This document shows, piece by piece, positions 22,096 to 56,385 of a stretch of 64,000 bases of DNA (positions are counted from its first letter, which is position 1; the number at the start of each line of letters is the position of its first letter). Under the pieces are notes generated by a model. The model was not told the DNA's origin and did not search any database. It saw nothing but the letters and a program-made list of their open reading frames with translations. The stretch lies in NCBI RefSeq assembly GCF_041248615.1, contig NZ_CP158426.1. One strand, given 5' to 3'. Position numbers and translations under genes: made by a program. This DNA comes from Escherichia coli (GTDB taxonomy: Bacteria > Pseudomonadota > Gammaproteobacteria > Enterobacterales > Enterobacteriaceae).

Positions 22096-22922
22096 TCCTG
22101 CCCGTATTTCTCCAGCAACGCTTCGGCAATCGCCTGAGTTTCTGCATCCGCTTCGCCGTTGTATAACGTCGGGCGGAAATGCATCTGGAACGCCATAATC
22201 ACGCGCCGCTGCTCGCGCGGTGTCATATCAGGTTTAACGTCATAACCGTAGCGCGCCAAAAGCTCCAGCAATGACGCGGTATCTACCGGTGTGTGCGGCG
22301 CGCGCCCGGCAAGGTAAAAGTTCACCCGCTGCGCATCCGGCCAGGCACCAATCCCCTGCTGCGCCAGTTGTTGCCAGGGGAATAACGGCCCCGGATCGTC
22401 TTTGCGCTGCGGCGCAATATCCGCATGCGCTACTACGTTTTCCGGCTTGATGTGATAACGGGCAATAATATCTTTCGCCAGCGGAATAAGCGCCTGAATC
22501 TGTGCCTGTTCAAACGGGGCAAAATATTTCACTCCGGATGATTTCTGCCAGCCACGGTTTTCCAGCTCAATGCCAATAGAGGTGTCGTTAAGGCGCGTTG
22601 CCCCGCGCCAGGCGCTAATCCCCGCATGCCAGGCCAGCTCCTGTTCCGGCACCAGTTGCCAGATGCGCGGTTTACCGTTGTATCGCGGTGGCACAGCAGG
22701 CACCAGATAATGCGAACTGACCTGCTTATCGGTCAGTGTCGCCAGCGAGCTATCAAAATCATCTGCGGTGTAGTGGATAACCAGCACTTTAATGCGCGGA
22801 TACGCCGCCTGCGCCTGGCGTCGGGTATCAAGCTGATATCCCTCTTTCTCGACAATGCCCTTTTCGCCGGCACACCCTGCCAGTAACAGAGCGGCGGCGA
22901 CCAGCCAGAAGACTCTTCTCAT
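22092..22922 (-). CDS. amiD: N-acetylmuramoyl-L-alanine amidase AmiD (lipoprotein)
   Basis: 276-aa ORF with lipobox LLAGCAG and amidase_2 domain. Confidence 0.9.
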
Positions 22923-23242: not shown

Positions 23243-23452
23243 GATCGATCTCCTTGTTTGTTAAGCCTTCGATCTCTAAAGCATTATCGGACTGATATGC
23301 CATGTTGGGAAGAAGGTTTTGATCAGTTTAGGAAATCATCTCATTGTGTCAAAAACAGGTACATAAGCCTGTACAATTATCCGTTGCATAACCCGATATT
23401 AGTTTTATTATGGAGCACCGCTTACCTGTCGTATTATGTAGTACCAGCAACA

Positions 23453-35204: not shown

Positions 35205-36317
35205 TTATTTTCCGCTCTTCACTTTGGTCCACGCGCGGGTGCGCACACGGTCTATTTTTGGATCCTGCACTTTCAGAGTGAACAACTTCGCACGAACGTC
35301 CGCCGGAGGATAAATCCCTGGATTATCACGCACTTCCGCGCTTACCAGCGGCGTAGCTTCTTTGTTCGCGTTGGCATAGAACACATGGTCGGAAATATGC
35401 GCCACCACATCCGGGCGCAGCAGGTAATTCAGGAACTGATAGGCTTCGTCTTTATTTTTGGCATCCGCAGGCATGGCGAAGACATCAAAGAACGCCATCG
35501 CCCCTTCTTTCGGAATCGAGAACGAGACATTAACGCCATTCTTCGCTTCCTTCGCGCGGTTTGACGCCTGCCAGACATCACCTGCCCAGCCGATAGCGAC
35601 GCAAATATCGCCGTTTGCCAGGTCGTTAATGTATTGAGATGAATGGAAATAACGAATGTTCGGGCGCAGCTTTAACAGCAGATCGGTAGCCGGTCCGGTG
35701 TAATCATCCGCTTTAGTGCTGTTGGGATCTTTGCCGAGATAATTCAGCACGGTAGCAAACACTTCTTCCGGTGCATCAAGGAAAGAGACGCCGCAGCTTT
35801 TCAGTTTTTCCAGATTTTCAGGTTTGAGGATCAAGTCCCAGCTATCGACGGGCGCGTTTTCGCCCAGCACCGCTTTGACTTTATCGACGTTATAGCCAAT
35901 CCCGGTTGTCGCCCACATATAGGGCATAGCAAATTTATTATCCGGGTCGTGTTTGGCAACCAACTTCAGCAGTTCCGGGTCGAGATTCTTCCACTCCGGC
36001 AATTTGCTTTTATCCAGCGGCTGGAAAACTCCCGCAGTCAACTGGCGTTCAAGAAAGCTTGCTGACGGCACCACCAGGTCAAAGCCGGTGCTACCCGCCA
36101 TTAATTTGCCTTCCAGTACTTCGTTAGAGTCGAAAACATCGTAGACGACTTTAATACCGGTTTCTTTTTCAAAATTGGCCACCGTGTCCGGGGCGATATA
36201 ATCAGACCAGTTATAAATGTGAAGTGTTTTTTGTTCAGCCGCGAGCGTGCCGACAGAGACGGCCATCAGAGCACCCGTAACCAGACCCGATAGCCATTTT
36301 TTATTTAAGGCGGTCAT
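35205..36317 (-). CDS. potF: Putrescine-binding periplasmic protein PotF
   Basis: MTALNKKWLSGLVTGALMAVSVGTLAAEQKTLHIYNW... from the internal Met of ORF 35205-36467. Confidence 0.93.
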   Translation of the reverse strand: MTALNKKWLSGLVTGALMAVSVGTLAAEQKTLHIYNWSDYIAPDTVANFEKETGIKVVYDVFDSNEVLEGKLMAGSTGFDLVVPSASFLERQLTAGVFQPLDKSKLPEWKNLDPELLKLVAKHDPDNKFAMPYMWATTGIGYNVDKVKAVLGENAPVDSWDLILKPENLEKLKSCGVSFLDAPEEVFATVLNYLGKDPNSTKADDYTGPATDLLLKLRPNIRYFHSSQYINDLANGDICVAIGWAGDVWQASNRAKEAKNGVNVSFSIPKEGAMAFFDVFAMPADAKNKDEAYQFLNYLLRPDVVAHISDHVFYANANKEATPLVSAEVRDNPGIYPPADVRAKLFTLKVQDPKIDRVRTRAWTKVKSGK

Positions 36318-36667
36318 ATCTCTTTCCTTCTGAAAGTTCGTTAACAAACGAACAAAAGTTGTCACACTGAAAGATATGCAATAAACGTGCATATTTTTTA
36401 TCGGCGCGGTGTAAGAAAAGAGAACTCTCTCCCGGCCAGCACTGCTCGCTATATAAAAGCATCGCAAGAATAACTTTAGCCAGGGTTTGAGACTATAGCT
36501 CGGATTAAAAAACGGTATTTAACAAATTTTTATGCGTATTTGCTCTATGTGATAAAGCCAAATCGGCACAAGAGAAGTGAAATAATCTTTAAGAAAAGGT
36601 TAAAAACAGCAGATAATTTTGCAGCACGCAGTCACTGCGGCAGCGACTGCGTACTCGAAAGGAGTTA

Positions 36668-37144
36668 TCAGTGGAGGAAATAGTTTTCGGTAACGTTGTT
36701 TTGCCCTTCATCGTCAGTCGGTAACAGCAGTTGATGGGCATTAGCTTCAAGAATGACCATCGAAATCTGCTCTTCGCTCTGACGCACGAACCATGCAAAC
36801 TGCTCATAGGTTACGCCCTGCATAACGGATAAAGACTGGCAAACCACCAGCTTTGGCAGATTATCATCCTGCATATCAAGAAATGCTTTCACGGTCAGCG
36901 AACTGGCATTGATGGCAGATAAATCTGCCGCCAGGGGCAATACGGCTGAAGGTCGGACTTCCGCCATGGCAGAAAACAGGATCGTGTTATCGATCAGATC
37001 GATTTTGGCATCAAAGACACCGTCGAAATTCTGCATATGGGGCAGATGCAGAGCCTGACAGTTATCACATTCAAAAAAACTCATCCCCAGGTCATCGAGC
37101 CATTGACGCAGCGTATCCAGACCAGGAACGACCAGCGATGTCAT
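36668..37144 (-). CDS. ybjN: YbjN (sensory-transduction regulator-like)
   Basis: MTSLVVPGLDTLRQWLDDLGMSFFECDNCQALHLPH... 158 aa. Confidence 0.88.
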   Translation of the reverse strand: MTSLVVPGLDTLRQWLDDLGMSFFECDNCQALHLPHMQNFDGVFDAKIDLIDNTILFSAMAEVRPSAVLPLAADLSAINASSLTVKAFLDMQDDNLPKLVVCQSLSVMQGVTYEQFAWFVRQSEEQISMVILEANAHQLLLPTDDEGQNNVTENYFLH

Positions 37145-37231
37145 AATTTTGTACAACCTCTTTCGATAAAAAGACCGGCACAGCTTACGCAAAAAGCGCA
37201 GGCAAAACCATGATCAGTAATGTGATTGCGA

Positions 37232-38134
37232 CTAACCACCCGTTTTCAGGCAATATTCCGTCGTAGCGTGGCGTTCGATCCAGCGGATCATTTTACCCGC
37301 GATGTCGATACCGGTGGTTTTTTCTATTCCTTCCAGCCCCGGCGACGCATTCACTTCCATCACCAACGGCCCACGATTAGCACGCAAAATATCTACACCA
37401 GCAACATCCAGCGCCATCGTTCGCGCGGCTTTTATCGCGATTTCACGCTCCTGTGGTGTGATACTGGCGACGCTTGCCGCGCCGCCACGATGCAAATTGG
37501 AACGAAAATCGCCCTCTTTCGCCCGCCGTTCAATCGCAGCGACCACTTCATCGCCAACAACCAGACAGCGGATATCACACCCTTGCGCCTCTTTGATATA
37601 TTCCTGCACCAGAATATGCGCGTTCAGACCGCGGAAAGCGTCAATCACGCTTTCGGCCGCCTGACGCGTCTCCGCCAGCACGACGCCAATTCCCTGCGTG
37701 CCTTCAACCAACTTGACCACCAGCGGCGCACCACCGACCATGTCGATTAAATCGCTGGTATCATCCGGCGAATGCGCAATGCCCGTGACAGGCAGGTCGA
37801 TGCCCTGACGCGCCAGCAGTTGCATGGAACGCAATTTGTCACGCGCCCGGGCAATGGCGACCGACTCATTGAGCGGATAGCTCCCCAGCATCTCGAACTG
37901 GCGCAGTGCCGCCGTCCCATAAAAGGTAATGGCGGTGCCAATACGCGGGATCACTGCGTCAAAATGGGGTAACTTGCGGCCTTTGTAGTGAATAGAAGAC
38001 GCCGCAGGATTTATGTTCATGTAGCAAGAAAGCGGATCAAGAATTTCAACCAGGTGACCGCGCTGTATAGCGGCTTCACGCAGCCGCTTACACGAATAGA
38101 GCGTTCCATCCCGGGACAATATGGCAATTTTCAC
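37232..38134 (-). CDS. rimK: Ribosomal protein S6 glutamate ligase RimK
   Basis: 300-aa ATP-grasp [38 protein letters not shown]... Confidence 0.95.
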
Positions 38135-38194
38135 CCTGCACCTCTCTGTCAGACCTGGTCAAAAGCCCGCGTATCATACATCGGCGTGGCGGTT

Positions 38195-38906
38195 TTAGCG
38201 CGTCGCCCAACCCTGTTTGTGCAAATAATCCAGAATAAATGGGCGGCTTTCTTTAATGATTGTTCGGCGGATATGATCGCTCCAGGTATCCCGGCGATTA
38301 TTGCTGCCACGGGTCCGCCAGTTGTTCGTCATACTGCGCCAGTGCGTCTTTATCCAGCGGTTGATAGCTGTTTTCATGCACCAAAATGGAGGACGGTAAA
38401 CGCGGCTTAAGATCCGGATTATCCGCAGGCCAGCCAAGGCACAGCCCAAACAGCGGCAGAACATGCTGCGGTAATTTCAGCAGCTCCGTCACCGCTTCAA
38501 TATTATTGCGCAGGCCGCCGATATATACCCCGCCCAATCCCAGCGATTCCGCTGCGGTTAATGCATTCTGCGCCATCATTGCCGTATCAACGACACCGAG
38601 CAACAGTTGTTCCGCCAGGCCAAGTTGTGCATCCGGACAGATCTGTAAATGGCGGTTAAAGTCGGCACAGAACACCCAGAACTCCGCCGCTTGCGCTACG
38701 TGTTTTTGCCCGCCGGTCAGCGTCACCAGTTCTTCACGTAACGCTTTGTCGGTAATGCGAATAATGCTACTGCACTGCAAAAAACTGGAACTGGACGTCG
38801 CACGGGCGCTGTTAATAATCGCCTCACGCTGCGCTTCGGAAATGGGTTCATCAGTGAAATGGCGAATGGAGCGATGGCCACAAATAAGTTCAATGGTTGG
38901 CGTCAT
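38195..38906 (-). pseudogene. nfsA: nfsA (oxygen-insensitive NADPH nitroreductase) interrupted by a frameshift near 38313
   Basis: N-terminal 197 aa in one frame ends ...QYDEQLADPWQQ*; the recalled NfsA C-terminus TRGSNNRRDTWSDHIRRTIIKESRPFILDYLHKQGWATR is in a second frame (ORF 38195-38464). Confidence 0.8.
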
Positions 38907-39177
38907 TATCTTTTTCTCTTTCTGAACGTGAATATTGCGGTGGACGGTTCATCAGCTGTGGGGCAAGACGTTTTGCCACCTGAAGAATAACCACCACCGC
39001 AGCGGGAAGCATGAGCAAAACACCGAGAAAAATCATCAGAATCTGCACTTCTGGCCGAGAAAATGGCTCAGGCAGCGACAGGGAGCCGCTTACCGACAGC
39101 AGCGCCACCGCCAGCAACATCATTCCGATAAATTCCAGTATCAACACGCTTTTAGGCAATTTACCGATCGCGCGCAT
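38890..39177 (-). CDS. ybjC: Small membrane protein YbjC
   Basis: 95-aa ORF immediately upstream of nfsA, as in K-12. Confidence 0.85.
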   Translation of the reverse strand: MRAIGKLPKSVLILEFIGMMLLAVALLSVSGSLSLPEPFSRPEVQILMIFLGVLLMLPAAVVVILQVAKRLAPQLMNRPPQYSRSEREKDNDANH

Positions 39178-42032: not shown

Positions 42033-42111
42033 GCCACTGCTTTTCTTTGATGTCCCCATTTTGTGGAGCCCATCAACCCCGCCATTTCGGTTCAAGGTTG
42101 GTGGGTTTTTT
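42033..42111 (+). ncRNA. rybB: RybB small RNA (sigma-E-dependent)
   Basis: GCCACTGCTTTTCTTTGATGTCCCCATTTTGTGGAGCCCATCAACCCCGCCATTTCGGTTCAAGGTTGGTGGGTTTTTT matches recalled RybB nearly base for base; lies downstream of ybjL as in K-12. Confidence 0.8.
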
Positions 42112-42191
42112 GTTGCCTGAAATTTATGCCTTTTAAAATCATGATATTAGAAGCACTGTTTTTTAACGATGGCGACAAAATGGCGGCAGCG

Positions 42192-42407
42192 TCAAAGAGA
42201 GAGCGCCACCTGTCCTGATTTCATTGGATGCGGCTGAACCGGATTTGACTCTTTTGGCGTTGCAATCGAACGAACAAAAGTTTCATGGGTAACAAAAGTA
42301 TGGCTGCAGTTAATGTTCTGGCACTGGTTGTAACGCTCTTTGGTCAATGAAGATACCTGAAAACTGCTGCGAGTATGGGCGGCACTTCCACACAGTGGGC
42401 AAATCAT
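42192..42407 (-). CDS. ogr: Ogr-type zinc-finger late transcription activator
   Basis: ~71 aa with CPLC...CQNINC zinc-finger spacing, similar to recalled P2 Ogr; start codon uncertain (ORF runs to 42443). Confidence 0.8.
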   Translation of the reverse strand: MICPLCGSAAHTRSSFQVSSLTKERYNQCQNINCSHTFVTHETFVRSIATPKESNPVQPHPMKSGQVALSL

Positions 42408-42500
42408 CATTTTTCGAGTTCTCCCCATTTTTGCTAAATTCACAATAATGATACCGCATTATTCCATTTTGCAAACTTAAAAGTTCTCCATTGCGAAGAA

Positions 42501-49414: not shown

Positions 49415-49432
49415 TGTACCGTTATTCACACA
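49415..49432. promoter_or_regulatory. Candidate Ogr-dependent late promoter element (TGT-N12-ACA) upstream of the sheath gene
   Basis: TGTACCGTTATTCACACAA, ~85 bp upstream of the FI start; shares TGTA...CACACAA with the dyads at 55472 and 61922. Confidence 0.55.
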
Positions 49433-49480: not shown

Positions 49481-50047
49481 TCAGGGGGATTCATTGCTCT
49501 TATTTGCCGGAAATTTTCTATAAATGGTAGAAACGCCTACATCAAAAATCAGTGCAATACGCTGTCTTGATTCTCCGGCCTCGAGTAAACGTCCAATCTG
49601 TGCCCACTGTTCAGTGGTCAACTTAGGACGGCGTCCACCTACTCTGCCTTTAGCACGAGCTGCAGCCAGCCCTGCCCTGGTACGTTCAACTATCAGTTCG
49701 CGTTCCATTTCAGCCAGGGCACCCATGACATGAAAAAAGAAACGGCCCATTGGGGTACTGGTATCAATACTGTCAGTCAGGCTTCGGAAATTCACACCAC
49801 GCTGGCGCAACTCTTCTATCAGCGTAACAAGATGCCGCATACTGCGCCCCAACCTGTCCAGCTTCCAGACAACCAGCGTGTCTCCTGCCGATAGTGTCCT
49901 GAGCAGCTTTTTCAGCCCCGGTCTGTCGGACTTGGTGCCACTGATTTTATCCTCAAAAATCCGCTCACATCCCGCACAGTTCAGTGCATTGCGTTGCAAA
50001 TCGGTGTTCTGGTCATTTGTTGACACGCGTACATAGCCAATAAGCAT
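49481..50047 (-). CDS. Pin/Gin/Hin-family serine DNA invertase
   Basis: MLIGYVRVSTNDQNTDLQRNALNCAGCE...VWKLDRLGRSMRHL...; catalytic Ser in VRVSTNDQ; close to recalled e14 Pin and Mu Gin. Confidence 0.9.
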   Translation of the reverse strand: MLIGYVRVSTNDQNTDLQRNALNCAGCERIFEDKISGTKSDRPGLKKLLRTLSAGDTLVVWKLDRLGRSMRHLVTLIEELRQRGVNFRSLTDSIDTSTPMGRFFFHVMGALAEMERELIVERTRAGLAAARAKGRVGGRRPKLTTEQWAQIGRLLEAGESRQRIALIFDVGVSTIYRKFPANKSNESP

Positions 50048-50102
50048 GATCAATCCCCTGAATAAAAACCAGGGATGATGCCAGTTAGCTGTTACCTCTG
50101 CA

Positions 50103-50128
50103 TTTTCTTAAACGTTGGTTTGGGAGAA
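50103..50128. other. Invertase crossover site (pix/gix-like), invertase-proximal
   Basis: TTTTCTTAAACG-TT-GGTTTGGGAGAA, two 12-bp half-sites around a 2-bp core, ~56 bp upstream of the invertase start; the GGTTTGGGAGAA half is identical to the site in H in inverted orientation. Confidence 0.7.
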
Positions 50129-50572
50129 GGTGCTCCAGCTATTGGTGTTCCGTTCTTCTGGCCGTCCGCTGCAATGCCAGATACCGTAATCGAAAGCTGG
50201 TCCGGCATGGTGTTTTTGAAGTTCAACGGCGCGAAATTCTCTGCCACTGATTACCCTGTGCTGGCGAAAGTGTTTCCTTCGCTGGTATTACCTGAAGCCC
50301 GCGGTGATTTCATTCGTATCTGGGATGACGGGCGAGGGGCGGACAGTGGACGAGCATTATTAAGCTGGCAGGCAGCAACATCTTTATCGCAATTTGGAGG
50401 TAATTATCCAGAGGGGTCCGGCCATTCGATTGCTAATCACGATGGAATATCAGCACACGAGCCGGGTTTCTCTCGATACCATTACACCAGTAATTCAGTG
50501 GGTGATGGTGTGAATTTTATAGCCGTCAGACCACGTAACATCGCATTTAACTTTCTGGTGAGGGCTAAATAA
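50129..50572 (+). CDS. Start-less alternative tail-fibre C-terminal segment (Sv'), expressed only after inversion
   Basis: Frame continues in phase from the crossover site; encodes GAPAIGVPFFWPS...LPEARGDFIRIWDDGRGADSGRALLSWQ..., a typical tail-fibre receptor-binding C-terminus. Confidence 0.7.
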   Translation, partial: GAPAIGVPFFWPSAAMPDTVIESWSGMVFLKFNGAKFSATDYPVLAKVFPSLVLPEARGDFIRIWDDGRGADSGRALLSWQAATSLSQFGGNYPEGSGHSIANHDGISAHEPGFSRYHYTSNSVGDGVNFIAVRPRNIAFNFLVRAK

Positions 50573-51165
50573 TGAAACCTGTTTTTGATAAAAATGGGCT
50601 GGCTACAGTGCCGGGCGATATGCGTTGTTTTTATTATGATGCTGAAACATCTGAGTATACGGGCTGGTCTGATGAATATATTAATACTGGCGTAAGTATG
50701 CCCGCCTGTTCCACTGGAATTGACCCTGGCGAAAACATTCCGGGAAGAGTGGCAGTATTTACAGGTAAGGGATGGAGCCATGAAGAAGACCATCGCAATG
50801 AGACTGTTTACTCAATCGAAAATGGTGCTGCTGTTACAGTGGATTATATCGGTGCCATCAAAAACGGTTATGTCACGCTTTCACCGTTAACGCCATATGA
50901 TAAATGGGATGGTAAGAAATGGGTGACAGATACTGAGGCACAACACGGTGCCGCAGTAGAAGCGGCAGAAGCACAGCGCCAGTCACTGATTGATGCAGCA
51001 ATGGCTTCCATTAGTCTGATTCAGCTGAAATTACAGGCCGGACGTAAACTGACGCAGGCAGAAACAACCAGACTTAACGCTGTGCTGGATTACATTGACG
51101 CGGTGACGGCAACAGATACCAGCACCGCGCCGGATGTCATCTGGCCTGAACTGCCGGAGGCGTAG
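50572..51165 (+). CDS. Tail fibre assembly protein, cognate to Sv'
   Basis: 197-aa ORF MKPVFDKNG... with Tfa-type C-terminus (AVLDYIDAVTATDTSTAPDVIWPELP). Confidence 0.8.
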   Translation: MKPVFDKNGLATVPGDMRCFYYDAETSEYTGWSDEYINTGVSMPACSTGIDPGENIPGRVAVFTGKGWSHEEDHRNETVYSIENGAAVTVDYIGAIKNGYVTLSPLTPYDKWDGKKWVTDTEAQHGAAVEAAEAQRQSLIDAAMASISLIQLKLQAGRKLTQAETTRLNAVLDYIDAVTATDTSTAPDVIWPELPEA

Positions 51166-51577
51166 GCCATTCAATATCTGGAGCACTGGAGGTATCAACC
51201 AGTTCCAGTGCGTCCAGATAATCCAGCCACAAATTATATTGCGCCAGTTCCTCACCTTTCAGACGACCAATAGCCGCTTTACCAGGCCATTGTTTACTGT
51301 TCATATAATCGTTGGCCTGATTAATCAATTGCTGCTTCTCCAATTCGGCTGCAGCAATTTGTTCCTCATGTGTTGGTGGTGGAATTTCAGACCATGCAGG
51401 AAAACCATTTTCTCCAGCGATACGGATTTTTCCTTTCGGCGGTAATCCGGAAAACTCAATATACACTTGCTCATCAACTTCAACAGCATCATCTGGCCAT
51501 GAGTCAGCTTGAGTGTAATCCTCTTTCATCTCCAGCGGATAGAAAGAGTTTGTAGTCGCGGAATATATGTAATTCAT
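51137..51577 (-). CDS. Tail fibre assembly protein, cognate to the currently expressed fibre tip
   Basis: 146-aa ORF with Tfa-type C-terminus (LWLDYLDALELVDTSSAPDIEWPTPP); converges on and overlaps the other tfa by 29 bp. Confidence 0.8.
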   Translation of the reverse strand: MNYIYSATTNSFYPLEMKEDYTQADSWPDDAVEVDEQVYIEFSGLPPKGKIRIAGENGFPAWSEIPPPTHEEQIAAAELEKQQLINQANDYMNSKQWPGKAAIGRLKGEELAQYNLWLDYLDALELVDTSSAPDIEWPTPPAVQAR

Positions 51578-51598
51578 TTTTCACTCCATATAGCTAAA

Positions 51599-52999
51599 TT
51601 AACAGCCTAACGCTAAAAATGAAGCGCCGAGGCCAGGAGTACTGGCTCTGGATATAAATTTAACCGGGTCGGGACTAAAACCTGCACAGGCAATATAACC
51701 AACAGCCCCGCTATCTGGTGTGTAGTCTTGTGAGACCAAAACACGCAGACATCTGTTTGGAAATGCAATCGGGAAATGGGTTACTACATCCTGTGCAATG
51801 CCTGGTGCGCCGATTGAGCCCCACTGAAGAATAAAACCTGATGGTAATTTTTGATATCCAGTACCTGAAACAGAAAGCGTGAAGCTACCCATATCAGGTA
51901 TCTGATTCGCCCCTGTCCCTACATTCCTTTTAGCCGCTTCTCCCAAACCAAGGTATGTGAGAAGACCAGCTACATCCTTTCCACTCAAATTGGTAAGCGT
52001 ATTGTCCAGCGGTTGTTTACCTGACAGCGCATTAAGCATTGTCGTGGCAAAGTTCGGATCATTCCCCAGCGCCGCTGCCAGTTCGTTCAGCGTATCCAGT
52101 GCCGCAGGTGCAGAACCCACCATTGCTGCAATCGCCGATTTCACAAAAGCCGTGGTGGCAATCTGTGTATTGTTGACCGACTGTGCCGCAGTAGGTGCTG
52201 TTGGCGTTCCGGTAAGTGCCGGACTCGACAGTGGCGCTTTTAGTTCCAGCGCATTGTTAATGGTGGTGCTGAATTTGGGGTCATTGTTTATGGCCGCGGC
52301 TATTTCTTTCAGCGTGTCCAGCGTGGCTGGCGCACCATTAATAAGAGCCGTCAGTGCCGCCTGAACAAACGCGGTGGTCGCAAGTTGCGTGGTATTATTC
52401 CCCGCCGCTGGCGTTGGTGCTTTGGGGGTTCCGGTAAACGTCGGGCTGGCTTTTGGCGCGTACTGTGAATGCGGGTCCAGTGCGGCAAGATGTTTTGCCA
52501 TCAGATCATCCGCGTACACCTTCAGCTCCAGTGCCTTGTCATCCACATACTTGCGGGTTGCCAGCACTACAGCAGGGTCGATTTTCAGGGTGATATTGTC
52601 CGTGCTGCTGGTAATCAGCACCATGCGCACGGTCTGAGTGCGCCCGCTACCTTCAGCCAGTTGCGGCTTATAGCTTTCCGGGCAGTTGCCCACGGCAATC
52701 AATGCCCCTGACTCATCAAACAAGCCCACTTCACGTATCCACCAACCGCCCTCGTTTTCAGGGATCACCTGTTCGGCAATAATCTGACTGCTGTTCTGCG
52801 GGTCGATATAGAGCATATTCAGCGCAGCCCGGCGTTTCTCATTTACCAGTGCAGTCTGCTTTGAGTCTGGCGTTGGCAATGCTCCGCCGCCATCGCCCAC
52901 CGCCATATGGGTAATTTTTAGCGGCACACCGAGCGCGGCGGCGCTGGCAAGTTTCGCCGCGCCAATATCCGTCAGCAGGGTATAAAATTTTGTGCTCAT
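51599..52999 (-). CDS. Tail fibre protein (P2 gpH-like), constant N-terminus fused in current orientation to variable tip Sv
   Basis: 466-aa ORF; crossover site lies in-frame at codons ~346-354 (YLGLGE). Confidence 0.85.
51938..51963. other. Invertase crossover site (pix/gix-like) inside the tail fibre gene
   Basis: TTCTCCCAAACC-AA-GGTATGTGAGAA on + strand; shares 14/14 TTCTCCCAAACCAA with the reverse complement of the site at 50103-50128. Confidence 0.7.
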
Positions 53000-55518: not shown

Positions 55519-56385
55519 ATGACACAAATCGCAATTTATGGATTTAATTTCACTAAAAAAATCACATTTGACGGTGGTGAGTTAACTCCTATTTTCAGTT
55601 CATGGAGTGAGTTAAAAAAAAATGGCTGGGCTAATGATAGGTACATCCTCACTGGTTTTTTCAAACCAAACTCGAATAACTACGCCACTCAACAGCAGCT
55701 TATTTTTGATTTACAAGCAGTTCTTAGTTTTATTGAACAAAAAAATGTAATCATTTCAGGAGAACTTGAAAATGATGAAACCCCTTTCAATTTCAAACCA
55801 TCTCTACCCAAAAAGCTTGACAAAAAAAGAGATAAGGGTGCGGGCATTATCATCATGGAAGATTATTTTGCACCAAACAGCCGAGAAAATTTTATTTGCT
55901 TAGCCATGGAAAAACTAAATAGTAAAGCCATGCTAAAACAAGATGCCTTTAGAACATCATTTTTTAAATCAATGCTAGCTTTCCGCGACTCAATAAATTA
56001 TATCGACGTCAGATATTATTTATTATTCTCGGCACTAGAAGCACTTTGCAGATTTATTAAAAATGACTACTCCCCTGCCAAAACACCACAAATAATCACT
56101 CAGGTTTTAAAAGAATATGGTTTTAATGTCGAAAAAACAGGACATACATTAGCTCAAAGAAACATTATGCATTACTGCAAACTCCGTCACTCGCTGTTCC
56201 ACAATGGTAAATACATTGCCTATCTTGATGAAAAAAACTCAGATGGCAAAATTGAAATTCAAGATTACTCATCAAATTTGAATTTACTGGTGCCACTTGT
56301 ACTAATGAAATTCATAGGATTTGATGACAATTATATAAACTGGGACTCATGGATTGATAGGAATCCATTTATCAGTAAAAAGTAA
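55519..56385 (+). CDS. AT-rich hypothetical cargo protein (~288 aa) between tail genes V and S; function unknown, candidate accessory/defence gene
   Basis: ATG at 55519 (ORF frame opens at 55471); visibly AT-rich and Lys/Asn/Ile/Phe-rich; opposite strand to all flanking late genes; no P2 counterpart at this position; C-terminal R-x4-H motif (RHSLFH). Confidence 0.7.
   Translation: MTQIAIYGFNFTKKITFDGGELTPIFSSWSELKKNGWANDRYILTGFFKPNSNNYATQQQLIFDLQAVLSFIEQKNVIISGELENDETPFNFKPSLPKKLDKKRDKGAGIIIMEDYFAPNSRENFICLAMEKLNSKAMLKQDAFRTSFFKSMLAFRDSINYIDVRYYLLFSALEALCRFIKNDYSPAKTPQIITQVLKEYGFNVEKTGHTLAQRNIMHYCKLRHSLFHNGKYIAYLDEKNSDGKIEIQDYSSNLNLLVPLVLMKFIGFDDNYINWDSWIDRNPFISKK

Follow-up and report, generated by a model that had tools for sequence, protein, structure and literature searches.

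A Gin/Cin/Pin-type tail-fibre inversion switch in an apparently intact P2-like prophage of Escherichia coli

A DNA invertase gene beside a short segment that holds two alternative fibre ends raises the question of whether that segment still inverts, and of what its inversion would change. We addressed this for a tail-fibre locus in a 64-kb stretch of E. coli DNA (64,000 nucleotides; hereafter the window), which an initial annotation had described as a Pin-type host-range switch and in which the invertase gene and both crossover sites read exactly as it had them (Table 1). We consider it highly probable that this locus still works as a tail-fibre switch with two states, of the Gin/Cin/Pin type, in an apparently intact P2-like prophage.

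Table 1. Features of the invertible tail-fibre locus (window coordinates).
Feature	Position	Strand	Description
DNA invertase gene, 188 aa	49481..50047	minus	Pin/Gin/Cin/Hin subclass of serine recombinases; Pfam, PHROG and Gin-structure matches
Presumed Fis-dependent recombinational enhancer	49958..50029	minus	Nucleotides 19-90 of the invertase gene, 5' end; homology to P1 interval
Invertase-proximal crossover site, 26 bp	50103..50128	+	Outer half TTTTCTTAAACG, core TT, inner half GGTTTGGGAGAA; whole site TTTTCTTAAACGTTGGTTTGGGAGAA
Invertible segment	50115..51951	.	1837 bp with both core dinucleotides, 1833 bp between them
Silent alternative fibre tip, GLGE + 147 aa	50117..50572	+	Tail-collar type, now unjoined to H; PHROG 3100, 523
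Tail fibre assembly chaperone, 197 aa, for the collar-type tip	50572..51165	+	PHROG 105 (4e-84); Pfam Caudo_TAP_N + Caudo_TAP
Tail fibre assembly chaperone, 146 aa, for the currently expressed tip	51137..51577	minus	PHROG 188 (2e-66); Pfam Caudo_TAP
Variable H tip, currently expressed, GLGE + 112 aa	51599..51949	minus	gp53-like C-terminal domain; Pfam Gp53-like_C on the 466-aa product
Crossover site within gene H, 26 bp	51938..51963	+	Inner half TTCTCCCAAACC, core AA, outer half GGTATGTGAGAA; whole site TTCTCCCAAACCAAGGTATGTGAGAA
Constant N-terminal part of fibre gene H, about 350 aa	51952..52999	minus	Pfam Phage_tail_fib; PHROG 327, 7032

Invertase, crossover sites and fibre genes

The invertase open reading frame (ORF) gives 188 aa from its ATG, and the product has the domain layout of a small serine recombinase: an N-terminal resolvase catalytic domain (Pfam Resolvase, residues 3-135, 4e-53) with a nucleophilic serine (Gin S9 / Hin S10), followed by a C-terminal helix-turn-helix (HTH_7, residues 138-181, 3e-15). 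It matches PHROG 125, DNA invertase (9e-101), and its residues 1-184 align to the solved Gin structures 3uj3/4m6f (E=8e-93). Identity reaches 85% with PinE of e14, 77% with Cin of P1 and 74% with Gin of Mu, in agreement with the earlier assignment to the Pin/Gin type. PHROGs and Pfam gave informative families where NCBIfam did not, no NCBIfam family exceeding the cut-off for the invertase and none being returned for the fibre parts. The exact protein occurs on at least 1000 public contigs. A tyrosine-recombinase shufflon of the Rci type was dropped as a candidate, because the adjoining recombinase is a serine invertase.

S9, R7, D64, R65 and R68 are invariant in an alignment with Gin, Cin and Pin, and the product of the intact gene retains all catalytic residues. 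Also present are K46, K47, R50, Q150, R153 and L154, the counterparts of Hin residues 47, 48, 51, 151, 154 and 155 (numbering here is that of Hin minus one). In Hin, K47, K/R48, K/R51, Q151, R154 and L155 contact Fis and the enhancer, and they are conserved uniquely in Fis/enhancer-dependent invertases (PMC3798978). By its sequence, the protein belongs with these Fis/enhancer-dependent DNA invertases (Hin/Gin/Cin/Pin, the 'Din' family).

The two 26-bp sites constitute the top inverted repeat of the region. They are imperfectly palindromic and inverted relative to each other, with identical inner 12-bp halves and the same 2-bp core, TT and AA being reverse complements; the repeat common to both is 15 bp long. 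The 14-mer TTGGTTTGGGAGAA occurs exactly twice in the window, on opposite strands, against a chance expectation over 64 kb of 0.42 even with two mismatches permitted. Scored against a palindromic invertase-site consensus, the sites reach 19/20 and 18/20, with the next best 26-mer in the window at 14/20. Theirs is the sole such pair in the window, and a search across all 64 kb for further crossover sites, of the Min/p15B multi-inversion or the three-repeat EPEC type, found none. The invertase-proximal site lies 55 bp upstream of the invertase ATG and differs from the e14 site beside pinE at 1 of 26 aligned positions. Inversion of the e14 P segment was demonstrated at an inverted repeat identical to the crossover 16-mer here, TTGGTTTGGGAGAAGG (PMC12529663).

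Both sites are in frame with the fibre, as proposed earlier. The H-internal site encodes T-Y-L-G-L-G-E, residues 348-354 of the 466-aa H, and leaves a current tip of 112 aa, the length first given. Flipping the segment in silico between the two core dinucleotides produces an uninterrupted, in-frame fibre of 501 aa (H'), and H as it stands in the window is likewise open. The alternative tip, previously put at 148 aa, is 147 aa long after GLGE. It had also been called start-less: it is indeed unjoined to H, but an ATG at 50075 opens a mechanical 165-aa ORF over it, which gene callers annotate.

The segment holds the two convergent assembly genes already recognized, which overlap by 29 bp; that for the 146-aa chaperone follows H on the same strand. 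The tips come from different families, Gp53-like_C and tail collar, the silent one aligning to the C-terminal end of the PHROG 3100 and 523 profiles (tail fibre / tail collar fibre), and both chaperones are of the Caudo_TAP type. A constant N-terminus can thus be fused in frame to either tip, each with its own chaperone.

The surroundings show the P2 late gene order, ogr-D-U-T-E/E'-FII-FI ... H-I-J-W-V-S-R-lysis-X-L-M-N-O / P-Q, when the RefSeq annotation of E. coli NRZ14408, the window ORFs and the P2 record are compared, with H in the P2 order V-W-J-I-H. The host element is an apparently complete P2-like prophage (Peduoviridae). In the P2 record fun(Z) lies immediately upstream of FI, so the initial annotation was right that P2 has Z/fun at this position.

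Both orientations in public genomes

The inversion is real, and both states occur naturally at exactly the predicted junctions. Where the initial annotation had suggested looking for both orientations in sequence data, public assemblies supplied the exact recombinant, at 100% identity, in otherwise identical chromosomes. A flipped construct of 3001 nt is 100.0% identical, in one piece, to NZ_LT599825.1 (E. coli NRZ14408, locus L001), and window positions 29300-64000 (34.7 kb) equal the NRZ14408 chromosome with 0 mismatches save that 50115-51951 is inverted. A second locus (L009, GCA_020005525.1) is 100% identical to the window with the segment flipped, and a third (L006) is 100% identical in the window's orientation, so that 9.4-kb loci at 100% identity occur in both orientations. 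The breakpoints in L001 and L009 fall inside the 15-bp shared repeat. Because the two orientations are found in DNA identical over 34.7 kb and in these 9.4-kb loci, the flips must be very recent.

Of the two exact fusion proteins, the 466-aa H is present on 22 public contigs and the predicted 501-aa H' on 12. Among more distant E. coli relatives, counted from matches over at least 80% of the query length, 12 records have the window's orientation and 8 are flipped. Isolates with near-serial assembly and WGS accessions (GCA_0098888xx, WXG*), which probably come from one project, differ in the orientation of the segment. Within RefSeq complete E. coli genomes the window's own orientation has no 100% match (best 94.6%), and the flipped construct has one.

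Could the locus be a locked relic, its sites and invertase recognizable but no longer recombining, with orientation differences that are old and inherited? A simple consensus scan found no clear sigma-70-like promoter for the invertase, as a relic might lead one to expect. However, opposite orientations within 34.7 kb without a mismatch and within 9.4-kb loci at 100% identity, together with a full set of catalytic residues, argue against a relic. One draft contig also ends 77 bp past the site and another holds the junctions of both states, which is what mixed cultures produce. We regard a relic as extremely improbable.

We attach next to no probability to the orientation differences being assembly errors or the product of RecA-dependent recombination between short inverted repeats. 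Short-read assemblers can mis-join inverted repeats, and one locus (L005) has an obviously chimeric 485-bp insert at the site. Yet the repeat shared here, at only 15 bp, is below assembler k-mer length, and it is too short for efficient RecA recombination. Moreover, 34 contigs, closed chromosomes among them, carry one or other of the exact full-length fusion proteins, and the breakpoints fall on a canonical invertase site adjoining an intact invertase and match the e14 repeat that has been mapped by experiment. We infer that this invertase, acting at these sites, catalyses the flip in vivo. Other Pin-type invertases of the host could flip the segment in trans, as PinQ does on e14 (PMC12529663).

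Proposed mechanism and lysogen functions

Under the preferred reading of a site-specific switch, dimers of the 188-aa serine invertase would bind the two 26-bp sites and presumably gather with a Fis-bound enhancer located within the opening 90 nt of the gene that encodes the invertase itself. The dimers would cleave each site at its central dinucleotide (TT/AA) and turn through 180 degrees, thereby inverting 1.8 kb. Since the two sites agree in inner half and core, each would be regenerated and the reaction would be reversible; and as one site lies in frame in H, a constant fibre part of 354 residues would be joined to either tip. In the window's state, the constant part is followed by the 112-aa gp53-like tip and then the 146-aa chaperone, and in the flipped state by the 147-aa collar-type tip and then the 197-aa chaperone.

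The presumed enhancer was placed by homology to the interval that the P1 record annotates as 'enhancer of Cin-mediated C-segment inversion'; facts on sites and enhancers were drawn from PMC3798978, the P1 record annotation and PMC12529663. Identity over its 72 nt is 76% with cin, 74% with gin and 87.5% with pinE, and G-N13-C elements lie at nucleotides 22-36 and 71-85 of the invertase gene, positions that match those in gin and pin. The interval overlaps strongly conserved codons, and its third-codon-position identity with cin or gin is no higher than in the rest of the gene. Because synonymous positions in nucleotides 19-90 are no more conserved than elsewhere, enhancer function is inseparable from coding constraint, and Fis binding and enhancer dependence are presumed from the homology.

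It is also conceivable that the switch serves the lysogen besides, or instead of, virion host range. The ATG at 50075 opens a short leader, MMPVSCYLCIFLNVGLGE, followed by whichever tip faces it, and a free tip protein made from this ORF could shield a surface receptor from other phages by blocking it. The leader shows conservation with that of e14 stfE, MPFACYFFIFINVGLGEG; gene callers annotate the short-leader ORF in both states; and StfE2, created in e14 when PinQ or PinE inverts the segment, blocks adsorption of T2 (PMC12529663). However, conservation of the leader has a simpler explanation in the crossover site and, on the opposite strand, the upstream region of the invertase; the consensus scan found no promoter for the ORF; identity between the gp53-like tip and that of StfP is only 27%; and in a prophage that looks complete virion function suffices. 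A role in the lysogen seems very unlikely, and we are very doubtful that the 18-aa leader plus 'off' tip would be expressed there as a free, receptor-masking tip like StfE2. If it were, a host-defence phenotype would be switched in addition to the host range of the virion.

Known relatives and significance

Among the closest known counterparts of the tail-fibre switch is the e14 P segment with PinE, which shares the near-identical proximal site, the 16-mer and the layout, in which a gp53-like tip and its Tfa are convergent with a collar-type tip and its Tfa and the tfa genes overlap by 29 bp. Segment sizes are similar (1797 bp in e14, 1833 bp here). The differences are that e14 carries a short StfP in a defective element, whereas here a full-length P2-type H constant part (354 aa) lies in an apparently complete prophage, and that the tips have diverged, with 27% identity between the expressed tip and that of StfP and 42% between the silent tip and StfE. 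At the DNA level only the invertase (80%) and the 3' ends of tfa (90%) align.

Mu G/Gin and P1 C/Cin share the enzyme subclass, the principle of joining Sc to Sv-U or Sv'-U', and the placement of the invertase gene just outside the segment with an enhancer in its 5' end. Their segments are longer (3 kb and 4.2 kb, against 1.8 kb here), their phage type is other than P2-like, and the TT/AA core differs from that of gix. The invertase gene here points away from its segment, an arrangement shared with Mu, whereas in P1 the cin gene is directed at cixL.

Invertible tail-fibre modules in the same phage family, at the same locus between the fibre genes and FI, are known from prophages of EPEC E2348/69, Salmonella Fels-2 (Fin), Klebsiella phage KP12 and Escherichia phage Cartapus. 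In EPEC P2-like prophages, inversion of about 1.8-2.2 kb was shown by whole-genome sequencing and PCR in 2014 (PMC4272514), and fibre inversion next to fin has been described in Fels-2 (PMC7953296). The annotated invertase of KP12 is 99.5% identical to that studied here. The present switch is the simple two-site version, whereas three repeats and four states are seen in one EPEC prophage. At the Z/fun hotspot of P2-like phages, an invertase 'often' occurs together with inverted neighbours (bioRxiv 10.1101/2024.10.15.618418).

The tip pair varies between phages, as mosaic database matches show, and another E. coli has, in a Mu/e14-type tail module, a cassette comprising the invertase with both tips and both chaperones at about 92% identity. 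The suggestion that the module came from an e14/Mu/P1-like source is supported in part, as exchange with e14-type elements in either direction.

We conclude that the switch is real, active and ordinary. All the structural claims of the initial annotation held, apart from the small corrections given above. Tail-fibre switches of this kind are already well documented, their mechanism is a textbook one that has been seen in this phage family before, and invertase cassettes are common at the Z/fun position of P2-like phages and have been described there, so the novelty was overrated at first. With the exact invertase on more than a thousand public contigs, the locus carries little weight for discovery. 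It does account for draft assemblies that end or turn chimeric here, for the pseudogenes into which annotation pipelines divide the fibre gene, and for the wrong label 'integrase' on the silent tip. It also explains how clonal isolates can differ by a 1.8-kb inversion, which is not to be counted as an evolutionary difference. For the biology of the phage, the unrelated folds and families of the two tips suggest that they bind different receptors. Given two alternative fibre tips, a lysogenic population carrying this prophage should therefore release two virion types of different receptor specificity, which would be a form of host-range bet-hedging.

Both orientations in public genomes

We found both orientations of the tail-fibre segment among public assemblies, as would be expected of the Pin-type switch that the initial annotation had proposed. 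A 3001-nt construct flipped in silico matched the Escherichia coli NRZ14408 chromosome (NZ_LT599825.1) in one piece at 100.0% identity. Among RefSeq complete E. coli genomes, the window-orientation sequence matched nothing above 94.6%. Compared directly, window positions 29300-64000 show zero mismatches to this chromosome, save for the inverted 50115-51951, and the breakpoints lie within a 15-bp repeat common to both crossover sites. Additionally, a 5.35-Mb contig of GCA_014857235.1 equals the window in its own orientation, GCA_020005525.1 equals it but is flipped, and the WXGT and WXGQ assemblies share the same few SNPs with WXGM in opposite orientation, these closely numbered accessions apparently coming from one project. 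Twenty-two public contigs encode the exact 466-aa fibre H, and 12 encode the 501-aa recombinant H' exactly as predicted after a flip; among more distant relatives (at least 80% of query length matched), 12 records have the window's orientation and 8 are flipped. Both states thus occur naturally, and the switch is demonstrably active in nature.

Traces of the alternative state are also visible within assemblies. At the invertase-proximal site, GCA_009888885.1 has an insert of 485 bp (locus L005, 6871-7370), a chimera of 223 bp of inverted H-constant DNA and 276 bp of the gp53-like tip, which are both junctions of the other orientation, and in the sister draft GCA_009888865.1 the contig stops 77 bp beyond the site. 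As a 15-bp repeat cannot confuse an assembler, we infer that the cultures sequenced contained both orientations. Within the 90% cluster, many fibre proteins annotated as 'partial' (345-391 aa) likewise end near crossover residue 354.

In the flipped NRZ14408 record, RefSeq/PGAP makes no call for the intact 501-aa fibre gene, which is annotated as two 'incomplete' pseudogenes (22195-22662 and 23311-23700 of the NRZ14408 locus). Its collar-type tip is mislabelled 'integrase, partial', as in several other E. coli genomes (database matches H8, H15, H16 and H41).

Anatomy of the switch

Features of the invertible segment and the prophage junction
Feature	Position	Strand	Details
RybB sRNA gene and adjoining ogr end of the prophage	42036-42114; 42192-42410	plus; minus	RybB, 104 bits
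DNA invertase ORF, 188 aa	49481-50047	minus	Pfam Resolvase + HTH_7
Invertase-proximal crossover site	50103-50128		TTTTCTTAAACG-TT-GGTTTGGGAGAA; 55 bp upstream of invertase ATG
Collar-type fibre tip, GLGE + 147 aa	between sites		convergent with gp53-like tip
Chaperone, 197 aa	between sites		convergent with 146-aa chaperone and gp53-like tip; 29-bp overlap
Caudo_TAP chaperone, 146 aa	between sites	as H
gp53-like tip of H, 112 aa	between sites	minus, as H	Pfam Gp53-like_C
Second crossover site	51938-51963		TTCTCCCAAACC-AA-GGTATGTGAGAA; within H
Tail fibre gene H, 466 aa	51599-52999	minus

The crossover sites have the sequences and positions first described for them, and form the region's strongest inverted repeat. 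The 14-mer TTGGTTTGGGAGAA occurs only twice in the 64-kb window, on opposite strands and both times at these sites. Their scores against a palindromic invertase-site consensus are 19/20 and 18/20, compared with 14/20 for the best of all other 26-mers in the window; the system thus has just these two sites and is not a multi-inversion shufflon.

When 50115-51951 is reverse-complemented in silico, the 354 constant H residues are fused to the collar-type tip in the same reading frame; the resulting 501-aa H' is open, which bears out the in-frame tip swap foreseen from the sequence. The alternative tip is 147 aa long rather than 148, and its silent ORF is not strictly start-less, a mechanical ATG at 50075 providing an 18-aa leader. 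By analogy with StfE2, this short-leader ORF beside the invertase might be given a defence role in the lysogen, which we consider unlikely; we read it as the silent alternative fibre tip.

The invertase matches the PHROG 'DNA invertase' profile (9e-101), aligns end to end with solved Gin structures (E=8e-93) and is 85% identical to e14 PinE, 77% to P1 Cin and 74% to Mu Gin, consistent with the resemblance to Pin and Gin noted initially. The nucleophile S9 and R7, D64, R65 and R68 are invariant. It also has K46, K47, R50, Q150, R153 and L154, whose Hin equivalents are reported to be uniquely conserved among Fis/enhancer-dependent invertases (McLean et al., PMC3798978). A putative enhancer at nt 19-90 of the gene, in a stretch of highly conserved codons, is homologous to the interval that the P1 record annotates as the Cin enhancer. 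The exact protein occurs on at least 1000 public contigs.

Prophage setting and related systems

The P2-like prophage has the canonical order ogr-D-U-T-E-FII-FI-[invertase cassette]-H-I-J-W-V-S-R-lysis-head genes and adjoins ybjL and rybB. The RybB gene has ybjL as its direct neighbour on one side and the ogr end on the other, placing the prophage junction at or beside rybB. As anticipated, the P2 record has fun(Z) at the cassette's position. A TGT-N12-ACA dyad (49415-49432, minus) between the invertase stop codon and FI is located where P2 has the Ogr-activated late promoter PF; thus, the cassette fits precisely into the gap between the fibre operon and a PF that looks intact.

The orf30 position of P2, between genes V (baseplate) and S (tail completion), is occupied by an opposite-strand ORF of 288 aa (55519-56385, plus); this ORF has no Pfam match and may be a moron or accessory gene. 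Past the window end, the same prophage (NRZ14408 locus, 35534-38943) encodes two proteins between its portal and replication genes, a RES-family NAD+ phosphorylase and one with a P-loop NTPase fold; they are probably cargo, for defence or as toxins, inserted at the other P2 hotspot.

Elsewhere in the window, a frameshift splits nfsA (nitroreductase A; 38195-38906, minus) into ORFs of 202 and 89 aa, and the identical NRZ14408 record marks the gene 'frameshifted'. NfsA loss is a step towards nitrofuran resistance. At 1337-2092, tRNA-Ser(GGA) is followed by an RtT-family match, a tandem 179-bp unit (~2.3 copies, 1600-2002) and two CRISPR type I-F-like repeats 60 bp apart (2013-2032 and 2073-2092; Rfam CRISPR-DR4), a minimal or remnant array.

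Invertible tail-fibre switches are already known, and at this location. The crossover 16-mer TTGGTTTGGGAGAAGG is identical to the inverted repeat where e14 P-segment inversion was demonstrated. At the invertase-proximal site, a single position separates this cassette from e14. Two P2-like prophages of EPEC E2348/69 showed phase-variable inversions of ~1.8-2.2 kb by deep sequencing and PCR in 2014 (PMC4272514), fibre inversion beside fin was described for Fels-2 (PMC7953296), and a DNA invertase with adjacent genes inverted is 'often' seen at the P2 Z/fun hotspot (2024 preprint, bioRxiv 10.1101/2024.10.15.618418). An annotated invertase of Klebsiella phage KP12 is 99.5% identical to the one here. 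In E. coli 2018-05-5CC, a cassette ~92% identical (invertase, both tips, both chaperones) follows a baseplate module of Mu/e14 type, so that different phage types evidently share this cassette. Such sharing agrees in part with the suggested acquisition from an e14/Mu/P1-like source, and transfer may have gone either way.

A proposed reversible choice of fibre tip

Site sequences, the open H' and both orientations in public genomes support the initial interpretation, and the classical invertase mechanism is the best explanation. Invertase dimers would occupy both crossover sites and be activated, presumably by a Fis-bound enhancer inside the invertase gene; cleavage at the TT/AA core would precede strand exchange via subunit rotation. 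The inner half-sites being identical, each inversion would regenerate both sites, making the switch reversible. Inversion would presumably depend on Fis. The 188-aa invertase probably catalyses the flip in vivo; other Pin proteins can work in trans, PinQ on e14 being an example (PMC12529663). Fibres of the prophage would thus end in either of two unrelated tips that have cognate chaperones of their own, and these tips may differ in receptor specificity.
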